A DNA stretch of 32,000 nt from an uncultured bacterium (GTDB lineage: Bacteria; Patescibacteriota; Gracilibacteria; UBA1369; PNNO01), in contig OY969931.1 of NCBI GenBank assembly GCA_963704705.1, forward strand, positions 1,320,001 to 1,352,000, given 5' to 3'. Numbering within the stretch: position 1 is the stretch's first letter; each line of letters starts with the position of its first letter. Positions 7,070 to 31,700 of this stretch are shown piece after piece. The notes under the pieces were generated by a model that was not told the origin of the DNA, ran no database searches, and was given only the letters and a program-made list of their open reading frames with translations. Made by a program: the position numbers and the translations under genes.

Positions 7070-8044
7070 ATGAACGAAAATAGCTATTTTAGCGACATCA
7101 CCGAGTTTTTTCTTAAAGCCAAAAAAGCTGAGAATATTGAAGTGAATCCTCATTCTAAGGCTGCAATACGCGAAATGATTTCGTATAAAATCGAGCAGCT
7201 TAAAAAGGTTGCGGATTCCAAACCCGAAGAAAGCTTCTGGTCTAAATGGAAAAAAACTTTAATTGGCGTACCAGCCTCTATTTTAGCTGTATTTGTGATT
7301 GTATTCGCTTTGCAAAACAATCAAATTGCAGTTCCTCAAGAAGATTTTTCACCTACCGGAGGAGGCGATATTGTAAATGAAGCCGACCTTATAAAAACCG
7401 TTGAAGATTCAGCGGTTATTAAAGATATTGAAAAACCCGAAGAAAGAACTGTTAAAGTAGACCCTCTGGTTATTGATTATGGGGATGAGCAAAAAGCCGT
7501 TCCGAGTACCCCAAAAACTTCTAATACAAGCGCAGCATCGGAATCAGCAACTCCGGTTACTGAAAAACCCATGCTCTTGAGTGTACCAACAACTGGCGGT
7601 CCAGTGCCGACTACTACTCAGACACCTGCTCCTCTTCCAACACCGCAGCCTACAACAACTTCTGAACAGCAGCAAACCGCACCAGCGGCAAACGACGGAT
7701 TTACATATATAAATCAAACTATTAACGAGCCAGTAACCACCCAGCCAGTAACTACGCCACAGGAAATCCCAACTGAAAAAGTTAAAAAAATTATAGATAA
7801 CGGTATTATTATTCAATCAGATGAAAACATTACCCAATATAGAGAACCTATTTCCCCTATTACTCCGAATCTTGATAAAACCGCTTTGGAAAAACTCCAA
7901 ATTACTGATAACCTAAGCACTGTCAATGTCCACTATTTAAATGAGGATCAGGCAGCTATCGAGGTAAAAAATCCGGATGGCACAAGATGGTATATGGTAG
8001 AAAAAATGAACGGCAACTGGGCAGTGACACAAAAATTTGATTAA
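7070..8044 (+). CDS. single-pass membrane protein, putative anti-sigma factor
   Basis: It starts 4 nt after the sigma stop. It has one TM (LIGVPASILAVFVIVFAL), then a Pro/Thr/Gln-rich linker and a C-terminal globular part. The function is inferred from position only. Confidence 0.5.
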   Translation: MNENSYFSDITEFFLKAKKAENIEVNPHSKAAIREMISYKIEQLKKVADSKPEESFWSKWKKTLIGVPASILAVFVIVFALQNNQIAVPQEDFSPTGGGDIVNEADLIKTVEDSAVIKDIEKPEERTVKVDPLVIDYGDEQKAVPSTPKTSNTSAASESATPVTEKPMLLSVPTTGGPVPTTTQTPAPLPTPQPTTTSEQQQTAPAANDGFTYINQTINEPVTTQPVTTPQEIPTEKVKKIIDNGIIIQSDENITQYREPISPITPNLDKTALEKLQITDNLSTVNVHYLNEDQAAIEVKNPDGTRWYMVEKMNGNWAVTQKFD

Positions 8045-15702: not shown

Positions 15703-15774
15703 GATTTACAAATTACTCGTAAGTACTCATATTGTCTCCAAAAAGCCAAAAAAGTCAAGCGGAAGTGAAGATTA

Positions 15775-15805
15775 CTTACCGAGTAAGGTGGTCTTACCGA
15801 GTAAG
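15775..15805. repeat. 2 direct copies (18-bp period) of the palindrome CTTACCGAGTAAG
   Basis: cttaccgagtaag-gtggt-cttaccgagtaag, directly upstream of a -35 hexamer. Confidence 0.85.
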
Positions 15806-15808
15806 CAC

Positions 15809-15836
15809 TTGCAATTTTTCAAAAAACCAGTATTAT
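15809..15836 (+). promoter_or_regulatory. promoter TTGCAA-16-TATTAT
   Basis: TTGCAA at 15809-15814 and TATTAT at 15831-15836, oriented toward the GC-rich gene at 16034. Confidence 0.45.
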
Positions 15837-16033
15837 AACAACTCTACGAATACAAATCGCGCTCATTTAAATACAGTTTTTTTGCTTATGGCAGCGCTGG
15901 AAAACACTTTGTGAAGGTACCTTTGGGCGAGCATTCCTGGTCCAATCACGCAAATATCACAGGGTGTTATGCTGGCGCTCCAAGCAGTAACGGAGCCTGA
16001 AAGTTCAACATACTCACACGAGGGGGGACGCTT

Positions 16034-16711
16034 ATGCGGAACGCCATCGCTACGTTTATGTTGGGCTTGGCTCTCAGCCTGCCTGTTGGACAGGCCAGCG
16101 CGTCGCCCCAGCCTTCAGATGCCGGGGTACAAAACGGTGATAATGATTACGTCCTTTGCGTCGAGCAACTTGGTGAGGAGGAGTGGTTAGTACATCAGTG
16201 GGTGGAAGACGGAGCCCCTTGTAGGTTCTCAATCCCGCCTTATGGTGTAATGGTGCGTCTCGACTATGGGGAAATGATCATTACTCCGTCTGAGGGCATG
16301 ATTGAACACGGGACCGCTCGTGTTTACACGGCTGGAATGCCCTTCAGAGTCATAGGAGACCAGGCTCATTTAGTCTCGTCGAACGACATTGTCGACCTCG
16401 TTGTTGAGGACGGCTTGACGGTTATCCTCTCGAAAGAGGGGGAAGCGTCCGTTGTTTCGTGCGAGATGAGTCTGGATCCAAACTGTGTAAGACGTGGATA
16501 CTACTTGCTTGAAGGTCACCTCCTGGCTCTTAAGTCTAACGGCGCATTGTATGCGTGGGAAGACGAAGAGTGCCGGGACATTAGCCCGAAATCAAGTGGT
16601 TGCAACGCTGCAGCTGGATACGGGGGCCCGGGACCCTTAAGCCTCCTAGGCTTCCTTTTCCTCACAGCTTCGTGGTTCTGGCGGCGACGTTCGCGTCGCT
16701 CGCTCAAGTAG
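16034..16711 (+). CDS. secreted protein with a MYXO-CTERM-like C-terminal sorting tag
   Basis: SD gagggggg lies 6 nt before the ATG. The signal peptide is MRNAIATFMLGLALSLPVGQASA. The C-terminus is SSGCNAAAGYGGPGPLSLLGFLFLTASWFWRRRSRRSLK. Confidence 0.75.
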   Translation: MRNAIATFMLGLALSLPVGQASASPQPSDAGVQNGDNDYVLCVEQLGEEEWLVHQWVEDGAPCRFSIPPYGVMVRLDYGEMIITPSEGMIEHGTARVYTAGMPFRVIGDQAHLVSSNDIVDLVVEDGLTVILSKEGEASVVSCEMSLDPNCVRRGYYLLEGHLLALKSNGALYAWEDEECRDISPKSSGCNAAAGYGGPGPLSLLGFLFLTASWFWRRRSRRSLK

Positions 16712-24750: not shown

Positions 24751-27396
24751 ATGGCAAAAAATTTTTGTATCAAAAAATATTATCATCACAGAGCCAAGAC
24801 TCAACTTAAACAGTGGCTTTTTATAGGCCTGTTTGCGATTTTATTTTTGGGAATGTTTGCGACTTGTGATGCGCTGGCTGCTTCGTACGTTGATGTTAGC
24901 GGAGCATCAAAAAATTTATGTACATTAGGAGCCGGCGTTACATGTGATGCCGGGACTTTAGATTTTAGTGCTGATCCTCCGATTGATGCAAAACCAAAAG
25001 CTCAATTATATTCAACAGGAAAACCGGAAGATTTTGAACTTCGCGGATGGCTATGGGATACAAACCTTGGGTGGATAAGTTTATACTGCCCTGAATCAGG
25101 TTTGAATTTAGGAGTTTCATGCAGACCAAGCAAATCGACCGTGAAATATGGAGTTAAAGTAAACTTAAAAAAAGAAATTTTATATGGATGGGCATGGGGA
25201 GATAATATTGGATGGATAAGCTTCAACTGCAAAGGCGGAAGAAATGAAACATTAGTATGCGGAACAAAAGATTATGAAAGTAATTTGGAAATTGATGTAA
25301 CAAAAAATCTTGGTAACTTTAGCGGATATGCATGGGCTGACACTGTGGGCTGGTTTAATTTAAGCGGAATCAGCGGTAAGATTTTGGATATTGTTATGAC
25401 TGAAAATGCAAGTGAACAAAACTGGGGAGTTTGGACCAAAGGTGAAATTGAAAATAATACTGCTGAAGGAAAATTTCAAGAAACTCAAAACAGAAAATAT
25501 TTCCCTGTTGCAGACGGTAACAATGGATATGATTTATTTGTGCACGTTGCAACAATTACCGGAACTCCTGTTGTTGATGTTCCGGGGCAGGTTTCAGTGA
25601 ATATAACAACAACATGGAATGATAATGTAAGTTTGGATCAAACTGTTGCTGATACCGGTGCTCCGCCCGAAGGACGATACGCGAATGTAAATAAAGTGGG
25701 TGCGGCATGGAAACCAGGTATTCCGGGATCCGAACTTGTATATACTCCTGATTCAACAACAGGCGGTATTACAAATTCATATCATGGCGTTGCAACTTCG
25801 GTTGCGCCAACCGATGGCGGAAACTGTTGGGATGGCGATGGTGATGGCTCATGTTACACAGGCGATTCAAATTATTTCTATAAAAACTTTGGAACAGATA
25901 TTCCGGATCAAAAACTGGAATATGAAGGTGCGACAGTTACAGTAACTATTATTCCAACAGGTGAAGTATGGAGCACAACAATCCAACCGCTTGGATATGC
26001 GGGTGGAAAATTAATGGAATTTTTACCTTTGGTTGATATTCCGGTTTTGAATTTTATGCTTCCCGGCAATCCGCCGATAGCAGCGAATATAATCCAGGCA
26101 ACAAGAAACAAAGAAGATGTGTTCCATATACAAGGTGCTGTAAATGCAGCTTTTGGCGGCAATTATGACCTTTCTCTCGAACTTGAACAAGATAATCCTG
26201 ATGTATACTTTCAATTTATAAAGGATCTAAATACAGTGCCGGTAGCTGTAAAGCCTATCAAACCATTGAGATTTAAAAATAGTGTTCCATTTGGCGACTA
26301 TTATTCAATTCCATTTGTTCCGGACATTAAACTTGCAGAAGAAATAACCGGAGCAATGCTAAGATCGACAGTAAGATTACCGGATTTTGGAGTTAAATAT
26401 TTTAACAACGGACTTCCAAGAACCGACGAATCAGTAATCTTAAATCAATCAGCTGAAATAGTTAGCGGAAGCGTATTTTCGCCAGGAGCAAAAGAAGTGA
26501 GCACAGGAGCAGAAGTTCCTTTGTTTGGAGACACTGCGGTTTATGAATTGCGCACCCAAATTTTAGAAGATGTAAGCGGAATTATCCGTGGCATTACGCC
26601 TGCTGGATTAGGCGGTGACTTTACAATCGAAAACGGTATGAGTGCTAGTGTCTTGGACGATTATGCTTTGCAGGGCGGACGCGCTTACTACTTTAAAGAT
26701 CACGATGTTTATCTAGATAGTACGGATCCTTTAACTTCAGTGGTTAGCGACAGGCCAATCACTTTGATTGTCGATGGCGGAGATCTTTATATAAATACAA
26801 ATATAGATACCGGAGAAGCATTCGGCTTAATCGCGTTAAAATCACGAACTGATGACAGCGAAGCAACCGGTGGCGGCCACATTTATGTTCACAGCGATGT
26901 TACAGATATGGTTGATGTTAGCATTTTCTCAGACGGCCCAATGTTCAGATATACAGATGGAGTATGTTACTACTGGGGTGCAGATGGAAGCGGAAACGAT
27001 TCTTTGCGCGCACCTAATTTTGTTAATAATGTTGGATGGTGCAGCTCAGCAGGTACATATAAAGAACCGGTTTCATCATTGCCAAACCAATTCTATTTAC
27101 GCGGAAATGTTGCATCGTTAAACTGCATCGGATGTTCAGCCGGCACAAATCCAACTCGCGGAGATGGCAAACTTTTAGGCGGACCATCAGCGGAAAATTA
27201 TTCAGACGCACGTTTATATGATTTGAATTACTTTAGTTATTACCGAGAAAATGCATTATCTCCAGGTACTTTCTCAGGCGCTCAGTCTTATTCTGTTCAG
27301 GCAAATTCGACCATTTTGCCTGCAAAGAAAAACCTTCCGGTTTACTTTGAATATTCCCCTGCCCCAAGCGACTTGCTAGGGTTTAGGGTGTTTTAG
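24751..27396 (+). CDS. large secreted hypothetical protein with N-terminal GW-x-W...GW(I/F) repeats
   Basis: It has a signal/anchor sequence (WLFIGLFAILFLGMFATCDALAA). Three repeats lie about 46 aa apart: GWLWDTNLGWISLYC, GWAWGDNIGWISFNC and GYAWADTVGWFNLSG (nt 25045-25365). The rest has no recognisable domains. Confidence 0.8.
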   Translation: MAKNFCIKKYYHHRAKTQLKQWLFIGLFAILFLGMFATCDALAASYVDVSGASKNLCTLGAGVTCDAGTLDFSADPPIDAKPKAQLYSTGKPEDFELRGWLWDTNLGWISLYCPESGLNLGVSCRPSKSTVKYGVKVNLKKEILYGWAWGDNIGWISFNCKGGRNETLVCGTKDYESNLEIDVTKNLGNFSGYAWADTVGWFNLSGISGKILDIVMTENASEQNWGVWTKGEIENNTAEGKFQETQNRKYFPVADGNNGYDLFVHVATITGTPVVDVPGQVSVNITTTWNDNVSLDQTVADTGAPPEGRYANVNKVGAAWKPGIPGSELVYTPDSTTGGITNSYHGVATSVAPTDGGNCWDGDGDGSCYTGDSNYFYKNFGTDIPDQKLEYEGATVTVTIIPTGEVWSTTIQPLGYAGGKLMEFLPLVDIPVLNFMLPGNPPIAANIIQATRNKEDVFHIQGAVNAAFGGNYDLSLELEQDNPDVYFQFIKDLNTVPVAVKPIKPLRFKNSVPFGDYYSIPFVPDIKLAEEITGAMLRSTVRLPDFGVKYFNNGLPRTDESVILNQSAEIVSGSVFSPGAKEVSTGAEVPLFGDTAVYELRTQILEDVSGIIRGITPAGLGGDFTIENGMSASVLDDYALQGGRAYYFKDHDVYLDSTDPLTSVVSDRPITLIVDGGDLYINTNIDTGEAFGLIALKSRTDDSEATGGGHIYVHSDVTDMVDVSIFSDGPMFRYTDGVCYYWGADGSGNDSLRAPNFVNNVGWCSSAGTYKEPVSSLPNQFYLRGNVASLNCIGCSAGTNPTRGDGKLLGGPSAENYSDARLYDLNYFSYYRENALSPGTFSGAQSYSVQANSTILPAKKNLPVYFEYSPAPSDLLGFRVF

Positions 27397-29536: not shown

Positions 29537-31156
29537 ATGCAACTAATTTACAAACACAAATACTGGCGTTTGCTTGAGATGGTTCCAGGGCTTCTTGCCT
29601 GGGGGGCGCTGCTTATACCTGTTGTTGTGGCGATTTATCACCCAATTTTAATTGCTGTTTTGGCTATTGTTTATGCGTTGCTTTGGCTTTTCAGATCAAT
29701 TCGATTGAGCATAAATTTGTATAGGGGTTATTGGAGAACTCAGGATGCAATGAAGGTGAACTGGAATTTTCTTCTCGATCTGGTTGAACATCCAGGAAAA
29801 ATCGACCAGGCGGTTAGTGAAACTGACCTTAGCAAGCCTCTTTTAAGGCCACAAAAAATCTTCAATCTTGAACTTAAAAATCTAAAAAACAGATTAACGT
29901 GGCTAAATCAAAATGACCAAGAGCTTAAGCCCTCACAGATTCACCATGCGATTTTAATAGTGACTTATAAAGAGTCGTATGAGCTGGTGAGGGAATCCGT
30001 TAAGTCATATGCGGAAAGTTTTTATCCTTATAAAAAAATGGTTTTGGTACTTGGAGGAGAGGAAGGCGACAAAGAAAATTTCGCGCAAATCTCAGAAAAA
30101 ATCGAGAAAGAATTCGGAGACAAATTCAGCGCAATAATTAAGACGGTACATCCAAAAGGCATGCCAGGAGAAATCCCTGGCAAAAGCGCAAATGCAACAT
30201 TTGCCGGTAAGGAATTAAAGCGATATCTCGACCACCATCACATCCCTTACGAGCATGTTATTTTATCAAATTTTGATGCTGACACTGTTGCGCATCCTGC
30301 TTATTTTAGTGAGCTTACTTTTAAATATTTGGTTACTAAAAATCGAACACAAAAAGCGTATCAGCCAACACACATGTTTCATAATAATATTTGGGATGTG
30401 CCTGTGATGATTCGTATGGTTGCTCTTTCTTGCACTTTCTGGCGCATGTCAGAGGCACTTGATAAACATAAATATAAAAGTTTTTCTTCGCGTTCAATGG
30501 GCTTTCAAACAGTTATTGATACAAATTATTGGGATCCTTCTATTATTCCTGAGGACTCGCGTCAGTTCTGGACAGCATTTTTGAAATACAACGGAAAGCA
30601 TACTGTTAGCTGGATTTATACGCCTGTTTATATGGATGCTGTTTTGTCAGATAGTTATCTTGAGACTTTTAAAAGTCAGTATGTGCAATTAAGGCGCTGG
30701 GCATGGGGTGTTATGGATTTCCCGTTCATGGCGATCAACTTGGCAAGACATCCAAAAATAAAACTCAGCGAAAAAATATATAGAATTTTTTACTTTTTAG
30801 AGAATGCGTTTTTCTGGGCAACCGGTCCTTTGATTATTATGTTCGCGGGTTGGCTTCCTTCTATGATGAACGCTGATTTCCGTAATTCGGTTCTTGCATA
30901 TAATTTACCAAATATAACCAGCCAGATTTTAACTGTTGCCGGAATAGGTATAATCATGTGCGGAATTATAAGTCTTGTGATCGTACCCCGTCAGGTAAAA
31001 CGCAGTCCGTGGGTACGAATTTCTCTATTTTTCCAGTGGCTTCTGGTGCCGATAACTTCAATTTTCCTTAGTGCGATTCCTGCTCTCGACGCTCAAACCC
31101 GCCTTCTTTTCGGCAAGCACCTCGAATACAAGGTTACGAAAAAAGCGAGGAAGTAA
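29537..31156 (+). CDS. integral-membrane family 2 glycosyltransferase, processive synthase type (QxxRW)
   Basis: It has N- and C-terminal TM helices. The GT-A core carries ILIVTYKES, FDAD (DxD), EDSRQFW and QLRRWAWG motifs. Confidence 0.8.
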   Translation: MQLIYKHKYWRLLEMVPGLLAWGALLIPVVVAIYHPILIAVLAIVYALLWLFRSIRLSINLYRGYWRTQDAMKVNWNFLLDLVEHPGKIDQAVSETDLSKPLLRPQKIFNLELKNLKNRLTWLNQNDQELKPSQIHHAILIVTYKESYELVRESVKSYAESFYPYKKMVLVLGGEEGDKENFAQISEKIEKEFGDKFSAIIKTVHPKGMPGEIPGKSANATFAGKELKRYLDHHHIPYEHVILSNFDADTVAHPAYFSELTFKYLVTKNRTQKAYQPTHMFHNNIWDVPVMIRMVALSCTFWRMSEALDKHKYKSFSSRSMGFQTVIDTNYWDPSIIPEDSRQFWTAFLKYNGKHTVSWIYTPVYMDAVLSDSYLETFKSQYVQLRRWAWGVMDFPFMAINLARHPKIKLSEKIYRIFYFLENAFFWATGPLIIMFAGWLPSMMNADFRNSVLAYNLPNITSQILTVAGIGIIMCGIISLVIVPRQVKRSPWVRISLFFQWLLVPITSIFLSAIPALDAQTRLLFGKHLEYKVTKKARK

Positions 31157-31160
31157 TTTT

Positions 31161-31194
31161 ATATACTAAGTAACCCCCACCTTACTTAGTATAT
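31161..31194. repeat. 34-bp palindromic element with arms identical to 29484-29517
   Basis: atatactaagtaa / cccccacc / ttacttagtatat, lying between convergent stops and overlapping the TGA of the NMNAT gene by 1 nt. Confidence 0.9.
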
Positions 31195-31700
31195 CAAGCA
31201 ATCATTTTCAGGCGCTCCACGCCTTTCCAGCTTTTTATGAGCTCGGCTACTTTTGGGTGCACATCGTCTTCCCACGACGCGTCGTCTTTGAGCATTTTTT
31301 CGCGCACGGAAGTTGCGCTTACACCCTCTACCATTTTAACGTCAGCAATTTTGTATTTACCGTAAACCTCGTAAAGCTGGCGCACAATCGGTGAGCCTGT
31401 GTAAACTTTATAAACCGGAGGAATATATTGATCAACGTGAGTCGTCCACAAAAAATAATTCATAACATTGCGAATCGGAATTATCACGTAGCGATCACGC
31501 GCGATTCTGCTTGCTTCAAGTGCGGCTTCGATCATCTGAAAACGTTCGCCGGCAGTAAAGGGATTCGCAAGTTCGTGATTTTCTTCTGCGCTCCCGATCA
31601 CAATTATCAAACGGTCTTCAACTTCCAGAGCGCGTTTAATCACGTCTAAATGTCCAAGATGAAAAGGCTGAAATCTACCTACAAAAAGCGCTTGTTTCAT
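31194..31700 (-). CDS. nicotinamide-nucleotide adenylyltransferase (archaeal/NadM-type cytidylyltransferase fold)
   Basis: FVGRFQPFHLGHLDVIKRAL is the (H/T)xGH motif. The protein is 168 aa, and its start overlaps the nadE stop (ATGA). Confidence 0.85.
   Translation of the reverse strand: MKQALFVGRFQPFHLGHLDVIKRALEVEDRLIIVIGSAEENHELANPFTAGERFQMIEAALEASRIARDRYVIIPIRNVMNYFLWTTHVDQYIPPVYKVYTGSPIVRQLYEVYGKYKIADVKMVEGVSATSVREKMLKDDASWEDDVHPKVAELIKSWKGVERLKMIA

Follow-up and report, generated by a model that had tools for sequence, protein, structure and literature searches.

Cysteine-type C-terminal sorting signals and the CPBP 'myxosortases' that pair with them were defined recently. These signals are curated to Myxococcota and Bradymonadales, some Beta- and Gammaproteobacteria, Synergistetes and Thermococcales, and the four known ones all pair with CPBP enzymes, one of them in archaea without an outer membrane. 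In the published model the Cys is lipidated and the protein is then cleaved by a CPBP protease, MrtX having been shown experimentally to act on TraA (PMC11980579). One of these signals, MYXO-CTERM, was curated as restricted to Myxococcota and later widened to Bradymonadales; a second nearby Cys is typical of it, and one hidden Markov model (HMM) is insufficient for all of its lineages and needs curation (Haft preprint). The curated MYXO-CTERM species carry 3-73 tagged proteins per genome. Our search of the literature returned no link between MYXO-CTERM or CPBP proteases and Patescibacteria. Surface proteins of Patescibacteria are central to their epibiotic life. Here we analyze a 32,000-nt stretch of the genome of an uncultured member of this group (contig OY969931.1, positions 1,320,001 to 1,352,000; hereafter the window), in which two genes encode proteins of 927 and 225 residues that share a C-terminal tail. 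The reading we favor, and consider fairly probable, is that of a MYXO-CTERM-like sorting tail, processed much as in the published model, on two surface proteins that are unrelated to each other and have been passed down vertically within a Patescibacteria clade. The shared tail points to a sorting pathway so far undescribed in Patescibacteria. Such a variant, if true, would extend Cys-type sorting to the candidate phyla radiation, and it names a concrete target, a co-occurring CPBP protease. The genes and their parts are:

790-3573, + strand: gene of the 927-residue surface protein, an open reading frame (ORF)
3400-3570, + strand: tail module of the 927-residue protein (residues 871-927), matched by TIGR03901.2 over residues 875-909
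3415-3417 and 3424-3426, + strand: Cys codons of G875-C876-A-G-C879 in this tail
3457-3501, + strand: helix V890-V904 of this tail
3502-3519, + strand: RRSRRS of this tail, followed by a 17-residue basic extension
3611-3636, + strand: intrinsic terminator 3' of the same gene (10-bp stem with 7 G-C pairs, T-run)
16034-16711, + strand: gene of the 225-residue secreted protein with the C-terminal tail, stop included; an ORF with 8 database homologs and 2 orthologs in single-amplified genomes (SAGs), the tail being present in each of them
16034-16102, + strand: predicted Sec signal peptide of the 225-residue protein, residues 1-23, MRNAIATFMLGLALSLPVGQASA before an S (from sequence features)
16586-16708, + strand: tail module of the 225-residue protein (residues 185-225), its only part in common with the 927-residue family
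16601-16603, + strand: Cys codon of G189-C190 in this tail, followed by a spacer
16637-16681, + strand: helix L202-W216 of this tail
16682-16702, + strand: basic cluster R217-S223 of this tail

Both ORFs and their C-termini (...SSGCNAAAGYGGPGPLSLLGFLFLTASWFWRRRSRRSLK in the 225-residue protein and ...KKKGCAGCSQSDGATPTGVMMFGLLMFWLLWSVRRSRRSAPARIKKNDRKSRSRLS in the 927-residue protein) are as a preliminary description of this DNA had given them, and both proteins have signal-peptide-like N-termini. The predicted signal peptide of the 225-residue protein, read from its sequence, has a basic n-region, a hydrophobic core and an A-x-A site followed by SP, and A23-S24-P25 is invariant in 8/8 database homologs. 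The 927-residue protein likely starts at M7 (nt 808), where its database copy P0010 starts (P-numbers denote database homologs, L-numbers related loci or contigs); its predicted N-terminal signal peptide, likewise read from the sequence, is MRQITTIAFLFFLCVLNIRSASA before a Q. The signal peptide is followed by a beta-propeller, Cys-rich acidic repeats, a beta-sandwich domain and the tail. AlphaFold2 (AF2) models of both proteins have low overall confidence (predicted local distance difference test score, pLDDT, ~55; mean 54.6 for the 225-residue protein). They place helices at residues 2-13 and 201-223 of the 225-residue protein and a tail helix at 882-901 of the 927-residue protein, where a beta domain is modelled with confidence at residues 660-850. 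The propeller occupies the N-terminal ~300 residues (AF2 and Foldseek, E ~6e-9) and resembles designed and natural propellers, including YncE. The repeats match the 'cysteine-rich acidic repeat' TIGR02232 and Pfam DUF4215. Three ORFs antisense to this gene (1606-2106, 2537-3151 and 2587-3261) were rejected as genes, being by-products of GC-rich sequence.

The tail has one layout in both proteins: Gly-Cys comes first, then a short spacer made up of small residues, then a hydrophobic helix that contains Trp, and last a cluster of Arg. Between the two families only this 41-residue tail aligns (profile-profile comparison, hhalign 82%, E 1e-5), and BLASTP of the 225-residue against the 927-residue protein found no similarity besides it, which bears out the earlier claim that the two proteins are otherwise unrelated. 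We aligned 18 tails, ten from the 225-residue family and eight from the 927-residue family. The Cys is invariant (18/18) and the Gly before it is present in all tails except one, which has V-C (17/18); the lack of Cys conservation in orthologs, which the preliminary description had named as a ground for refuting its reading, is thus not seen. The Cys precedes the basic cluster by 24-29 residues, and in both families the helix has a Trp close to its cytoplasmic end. Among 10 orthologs of the 225-residue protein, G189, C190 and R218 do not vary. The 927-residue family has a doubled Cys (GCxGC, GCC or CGC), and its tail is kept in homologs P0010-14, P0031, P0038, P0079, P0130 and P0131. HMMs built from the tails of one family give those of the other a mean score of 12.8-14.7 bits. 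When the signature region alone is shuffled, ~5.5 bits of this cross-family score are lost, and 0/200 shuffles reached the real score; hence the signature contributes to recognition beyond the helix and the arginines. When all ORFs of the window were screened, these two were the only real genes whose product has a hydrophobic stretch near the C-terminus and a basic cluster right after it.

The sequence of the basic cluster is less constant than the layout. The preliminary description had made RRSRRS part of the shared tail; Gly-Cys, spacer, helix and Arg cluster are indeed conserved, but RRSRRS is not, since RRSRR is kept in most of the 927-residue family and not in the 225-residue family, whose orthologs carry RRQRKR, RRRKKR, RRRSRH, RRRARV or RRRSSS. 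The DNA strings that encode it do differ only at two third positions (3502-3516 versus 16685-16699), as had been noted, but such likeness is expected by chance: 13/18 bases are identical (P~0.16 given the peptide and codon usage) and the alignment stops after ~15 nt, and a common DNA origin of the two was rejected. MYXO-CTERM domains lie near the C-terminus, as the tail does in the 225-residue family, where 2-9 residues follow the basic cluster; in the 927-residue family another 6-20 residues come after it. The two helices of the window, LSLLGFLFLTASWFW and VMMFGLLMFWLLWSV, both qualify as MYXO-CTERM helices by the definition in the Haft preprint; in some orthologs (P0013, P0031, P0038) a Pro stands near the helix start.

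We compared the tails with all NCBIfam models. The 927-residue protein marginally passes the MYXO-CTERM model TIGR03901.2 (20.2 bits versus a cut-off of 20), on which the 225-residue tail of the window scores 10.7 bits, and P0002 of the 225-residue family passes TIGR03382 (17.9 versus 15.85). When the 18 tails were scanned singly, TIGR03901.2 matched 10 (best E 1.5e-6) and TIGR03382, a second MYXO-CTERM model, matched 8 (best E 2.8e-6). The other models matched fewer: PEP-CTERM 4 (best E 0.047), LPXTG 2 (0.0075), GlyGly-CTERM 2 (0.27), JDVT-CTERM 2 (1.9), Synerg-CTERM 1 (0.021) and Heimdall-CTERM 1 (0.057). The tail profile also aligns with the G-C tails of six Myxococcota-like Cys-repeat proteins (96.5% probability, E 8e-10), two of which themselves pass TIGR03901.2. 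By its sequence, the tail is MYXO-CTERM-like and of the Cys (myxosortase) type, not of the exosortase or rhombosortase type; the preliminary description had named all three as possible classes for a shared sorting signal, and the tail is a shared, conserved tripartite module. An invariant Cys, a helix and an Arg cluster on unrelated, predicted-exported proteins of one genome also characterize it as a putative member of the general Cys-containing tripartite signals (MYXO-, JDVT-, Synerg- and CGP-CTERM). In our reading it is a lineage variant of the MYXO-CTERM-type signal in a phylum-level group for which none had been described.

Similarity to MYXO-CTERM, the substrate signal of the CPBP/Rce1 myxosortases MrtX, MrtC and MrtP, extends to the G-C signature, the frequent second Cys, the charge-free hydrophobic helix and the Arg cluster, to the best HMM and profile-profile matches, and to the occurrence of the tag on secreted proteins with Cys-rich acidic repeats. 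Moreover, the order of parts in the 927-residue protein recalls TraA/MXAN_4924 of Myxococcus xanthus (PMC3325183), which also combines a signal peptide, an N-terminal recognition domain, a Cys-rich repeat stalk and MYXO-CTERM; however, TraA has a PA14 domain and TIGR04201 repeats, whereas the 927-residue protein has a beta-propeller, TIGR02232/DUF4215 and an extra beta-sandwich. JDVT-CTERM/MrtJ and Synerg-CTERM/MrtS are likewise Cys-containing tripartite signals with CPBP enzymes, but their models match our tails weakly, and neither the DP motif of JDVT nor the helix Pro that is invariant in Synerg (Haft preprint) occurs in the tails. Nor does an enzyme gene adjoin the tail genes, as it does in the two-gene cassette of MrtJ (PMC11980579). 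PGF-CTERM/archaeosortase A, PEP-CTERM/exosortase, GlyGly-CTERM/rhombosortase and LPXTG/sortase share the general scheme of motif, helix and basic cluster; however, their motifs are absent from all tails, and their models match weakly, through the helix and the arginines.

Following the published MYXO-CTERM model (PMC11980579), both precursors would be exported by Sec via the N-terminal signal peptide. The C-terminal helix would then hold the precursor in the cytoplasmic membrane, with the Arg/Lys cluster on the cytoplasmic side. The invariant juxtamembrane Cys would be modified, probably by a lipid, after which the helix might be cut off by a CPBP/Rce1 (myxosortase-like) glutamic intramembrane protease encoded elsewhere in the genome, and the ectodomain would stay lipid-anchored at the cell surface. 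Patescibacteria cells presumably lack an outer membrane. Hence no type II secretion step would be needed, as has been proposed for archaeal CGP-CTERM/MrtA; the host presumably differs in both respects, outer membrane and type II secretion, from the bearers of MYXO-CTERM. All that we saw that could bear on such secretion is the minor-pilin-like cluster beside the 927-residue protein gene. CGP-CTERM/MrtA of Thermococcales is also an invariant-Cys tripartite signal with predicted CPBP processing in cells without an outer membrane, and is the best functional analogy for a Patescibacteria cell. Unlike CGP-CTERM, our tails have a 10-14-residue spacer and lack the CGP motif, and the NCBIfam scan gave no match to it.

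The main rival explanation, which we consider rather unlikely, takes the tail for a plain C-terminal stop-transfer anchor of type I bitopic proteins that stays unprocessed. Its Cys would serve another role, such as an intermolecular disulfide or a link to the wall or S-layer, and the likeness to MYXO-CTERM would reflect common ancestry or convergence without processing. Several observations weigh against processing and suit such an anchor. Among window ORFs of at least 100 residues, all but that at 31194-31700 being scanned, we found no Pfam match to CPBP, sortase, exosortase or rhomboid, in line with the earlier remark that the window holds no sorting enzyme. These families were equally absent from the called genes of the related loci, and no ORF with an EExxxR...FxxxH...HxxxN/D motif was present in 264 kb of loci, a small fraction of the 1.37-Mb genome. 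Since sorting enzymes are usually not adjacent to their substrates, absence of an enzyme near the tail genes says little. The number of substrates is low as well. The tail HMM, run on 1521 ORFs (the window and L001-L015) and then on L016-L020, matched the two families only. A search of 1.84 billion representative proteins with the tail profile returned nine matches at E<=1e-3: six members or fragments of the two families (two of them fragments from the 927-residue family), P0133 and P0134 of the GC type, and P0132; P0133 bears two MYXO-CTERM-like motifs. With P0132 uninspected, no further family of the clade appears at this threshold. Scores, too, fall short: most orthologs reach 14.5-19.6 bits, just under the curated MYXO-CTERM cut-offs. 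A point against our favored reading only is that the host, a member of the Patescibacteria, stands outside the lineages to which that signal was curated. Finally, the helix has conserved residues, T211 and W214, and in the 927-residue family a semi-conserved basic extension (..IKENDRKSR) of 15-25 residues follows the Arg cluster. This extension, a difference from MYXO-CTERM, would be odd in a peptide that is cleaved and discarded and hints at a function for the cytoplasmic end. An unprocessed anchor, however, needs no G-C, and here two unrelated proteins share it at a like distance from the helix end. The best curated matches are to models of sorting signals, not to the membrane-anchor regions of protein families, and the 927-residue family has the doubled Cys that is typical of MYXO-CTERM.

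A second alternative is that both genes were recently imported from a GC-rich donor (e.g. Myxococcota) and that the tail is a non-functional relic of the donor's MYXO-CTERM system. Composition favors it, as do the TraA-like architecture (PMC3325183) and the TIGR02232/DUF4215 repeats, which elsewhere occur mostly in Myxococcota-labelled proteins (40-60% identity over the repeat region). As noted earlier, both genes are GC-rich: GC is 0.58 for the 927-residue protein gene and 0.55 for the 225-residue protein gene, and GC at third codon positions (GC3) is 0.72 and 0.58, respectively, versus 0.21-0.38 (about 0.30) in neighbouring genes of a genome with ~38% GC. However, at least five related genomes have the orthologs in matching syntenic places. 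The 225-residue protein gene is always flanked by a small lipoprotein gene and the gene of penicillin-binding protein 1A (PBP1A) on one side and by pheT on the other, and the 927-residue protein gene invariably has a minor-pilin-like cluster of four genes on one side and a CHASE2 cyclase gene on the other; all related contigs that we retrieved show this order (L002, L003, L005, L006, L010, L011, L012, L017, L020). The most distant 225-residue orthologs found in species-representative genomes belong to the Patescibacteria SAGs AM-311-A13 and AM-312-L06, the closest named relatives, and the 927-residue orthologs P0031 and P0038 are labelled Patescibacteria group bacterium (NCBI). Both genes keep their positions through divergence to 36-46% amino-acid identity, and G-C and the Arg cluster are conserved throughout the divergence of the clade.

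We also compared identity at fourfold degenerate sites within identical codons. Between the window and a closer relative (L005/L006) it is 0.64 for the 927-residue protein gene and 0.52 for the 225-residue protein gene, versus 0.53-0.60 for their neighbours (PheT, PBP1A, TopA). Between the window and SAG AM-312-L06 (L010/L003) the values are 0.45 and 0.19, versus 0.42-0.47 for neighbours, which is near saturation. With identity like that of their neighbours, the genes date from the origin of the clade and are no recent imports. In addition, outside the clade neither the propeller and C-terminal domains of the 927-residue protein nor the whole 225-residue family has homologs; the Cys-rich repeats alone are found in Myxococcota proteins as well. 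Both genes are thus vertically inherited in this Patescibacteria clade. The suggestion that the tail was imported with both genes does not stand as a recent event: to judge from synteny and from synonymous divergence equal to that of housekeeping neighbours, a recent import is largely refuted and, in our estimate, very improbable, and import at an ancient date, when the clade arose, is possible. Still less probable is host mimicry, in which the epibiont would display or deliver proteins that bear the tag of a myxobacterial host whose machinery processes or accepts them, for instance by exploiting outer-membrane exchange: the otherwise myxobacterial tag and repeat type, the attachment role with which a place after the minor-pilin cluster is consistent, and the episymbiotic life of cultivated Patescibacteria (all obligate episymbionts on other microbes, PMC12206443) suit it, but the proteins' own Sec signal peptides and membrane anchors place both in the epibiont's membrane, and neither the PA14 domain nor the TIGR04201 repeat of TraA is present.

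The GC-rich tail genes keep a strong bias to C-ending codons. C occupies ~50% of fourfold sites in the 927-residue protein gene and in its 36%-identical ortholog, versus 8-14% in housekeeping genes; the 225-residue family has a milder C-ending bias. A third family shows the same bias: lipoproteins of 338-358 residues that start with a lipobox, have a poly-Asn linker and match SLH faintly; the GC3 of their genes is 0.75-0.87 (L005, L010, L011). Their genes lie between the cyclase gene and efp:

L005, 17987-19063: third-family lipoprotein gene, C-ending bias
L010, 15585-16601: third-family lipoprotein gene, C-ending bias
L011, 8130-9182: third-family lipoprotein gene, C-ending bias
L017, 13977-14990: third-family lipoprotein gene

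Further sites of the bias are 790-3573 and 16034-16711 of the window, L010 10001-12577 and L003 10001-10645. The lipoprotein gene is absent from the window at the cyclase-efp junction (5700-5702) and was therefore gained or lost within the clade. In syntenic orthologs the bias persists down to 36% amino-acid identity, with synonymous divergence as in neighbouring genes. Codon bias of highly expressed genes was rejected as its cause (GC3 of the HU gene is 0.17). Given this value and the synonymous turnover, the bias is actively maintained and is not an expression effect. Neither recent transfer nor high expression accounts for the C-ending bias, and a gene-specific bias maintained for so long poses an evolutionary question of its own. 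A SAG relative has another GC-rich gene (L002 9705-10358, GC3 0.61) between the HU gene and the contig end; it encodes a 217-residue protein with a highly acidic C-terminus and without the tail.

Both tail genes appear, from their upstream sequences, to have sigma-70-type promoters of their own, each followed by a conserved leader:

575-789, + strand: promoter and leader of the 927-residue protein gene, with near-consensus TTGACA-17-TAATAT at 581-609 and a ~175-nt structured leader (promoter scan, conservation)
15703-16033, + strand: promoter and leader of the 225-residue protein gene, with TTGCAA-16-TATTAT at 15809-15836 (promoter scan, conserved blocks in five genomes)

The 215-nt region 5' of the 927-residue protein gene has 82% mean column identity in four genomes, in which the proteins are 36-73% identical, and three hairpins are predicted in its leader, which may be an undescribed cis-regulatory RNA or operator region. 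Besides the conserved promoter, the leader of the 225-residue protein gene has a box, CGCGCTCATTTAAAT, that is likewise conserved, and it can form a long hairpin (GCAGCGCTGG...CTGGCGCT), where 6/21 pairs show compensatory changes across five genomes. Neither leader matches an Rfam family at gathering score. A lysM-TM7 match in the window (18 bits, E 0.41) was dismissed; it was not repeated in L010. Surface proteins in these genomes could be sought by their odd codon composition, by the tail HMM and by conserved leaders, which together offer a handle on them.

The four-gene cluster that precedes the 927-residue protein gene encodes type IV pilin-like proteins whose prepilin N-termini read KGF[LT]LVE (L005 6385-9763; L010 6419-9774), and its order, including a PF07963 (N_methyl) protein, is the same in L005, L010, L011 and L017. 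The window holds its end:

1-574, + strand: 3' end of the fourth gene of the minor-pilin-like cluster (frame 2, open over bases 2-574), matching the C-terminus of a 420-residue protein of L005

The constant place of the 927-residue protein gene after this cluster suggests a tie of the tagged protein to a pilus or pseudopilus. Building on our preferred reading of a processed MYXO-CTERM-like tail, we tentatively suggest, as a possibility and not as an expectation, that the clade runs its own Cys-dependent, myxosortase-like pathway without an outer membrane. Its substrates would form part of a small group of surface-protein genes that have in common a maintained C-ending codon bias, long conserved leaders with structure and the minor-pilin neighbourhood. 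This group could be a dedicated, specially regulated apparatus for host attachment, perhaps derived from genes acquired long ago from Myxococcota.

The ectodomain of the 225-residue protein was modelled by AF2 as all-beta. Its top two Foldseek matches (residues ~41-142, 16154-16460) are FecR-type anti-sigma sensors, PDB 4m0h and 6ovk (E 5e-3 to 8.5e-3), a resemblance that rests on a moderately confident part of the model. Pfam did not find FecR in this protein and gave a single weak RCC1_2 repeat, and a sequence search of PDB returned no match. The FecR-type likeness is a weak, model-based lead, not a result. An extracytoplasmic function (ECF) sigma factor gene and a probable membrane anti-sigma gene (6493-8044) lie 8 kb upstream of the 225-residue protein gene. 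In one metagenome variant (L013), a DDE transposase gene (PF01609, 1249-2502) stands just upstream of the 225-residue ortholog, between it and the small lipoprotein gene.

The window otherwise carries housekeeping genes of ~38% GC, among them pheS/pheT, topA, efp, a class A penicillin-binding protein gene, the ECF sigma factor gene and the CHASE2 adenylate cyclase gene; no RNA genes were found in it. For the ORF at 31194-31700, an identical contig has a pre-computed annotation that assigns PF01467 (CTP_transf_like). The gene with the lowest GC of the window (0.279), that of an IS200-like Y1 transposase (PF01797, 27528-27950), is located between the gene of a conserved 881-residue protein and a phosphoglucomutase gene. 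Two large conserved proteins, of 881 residues (24751-27396) and 539 residues (29537-31156), are without a Pfam match, and the gene of the former follows topA in all relatives examined.

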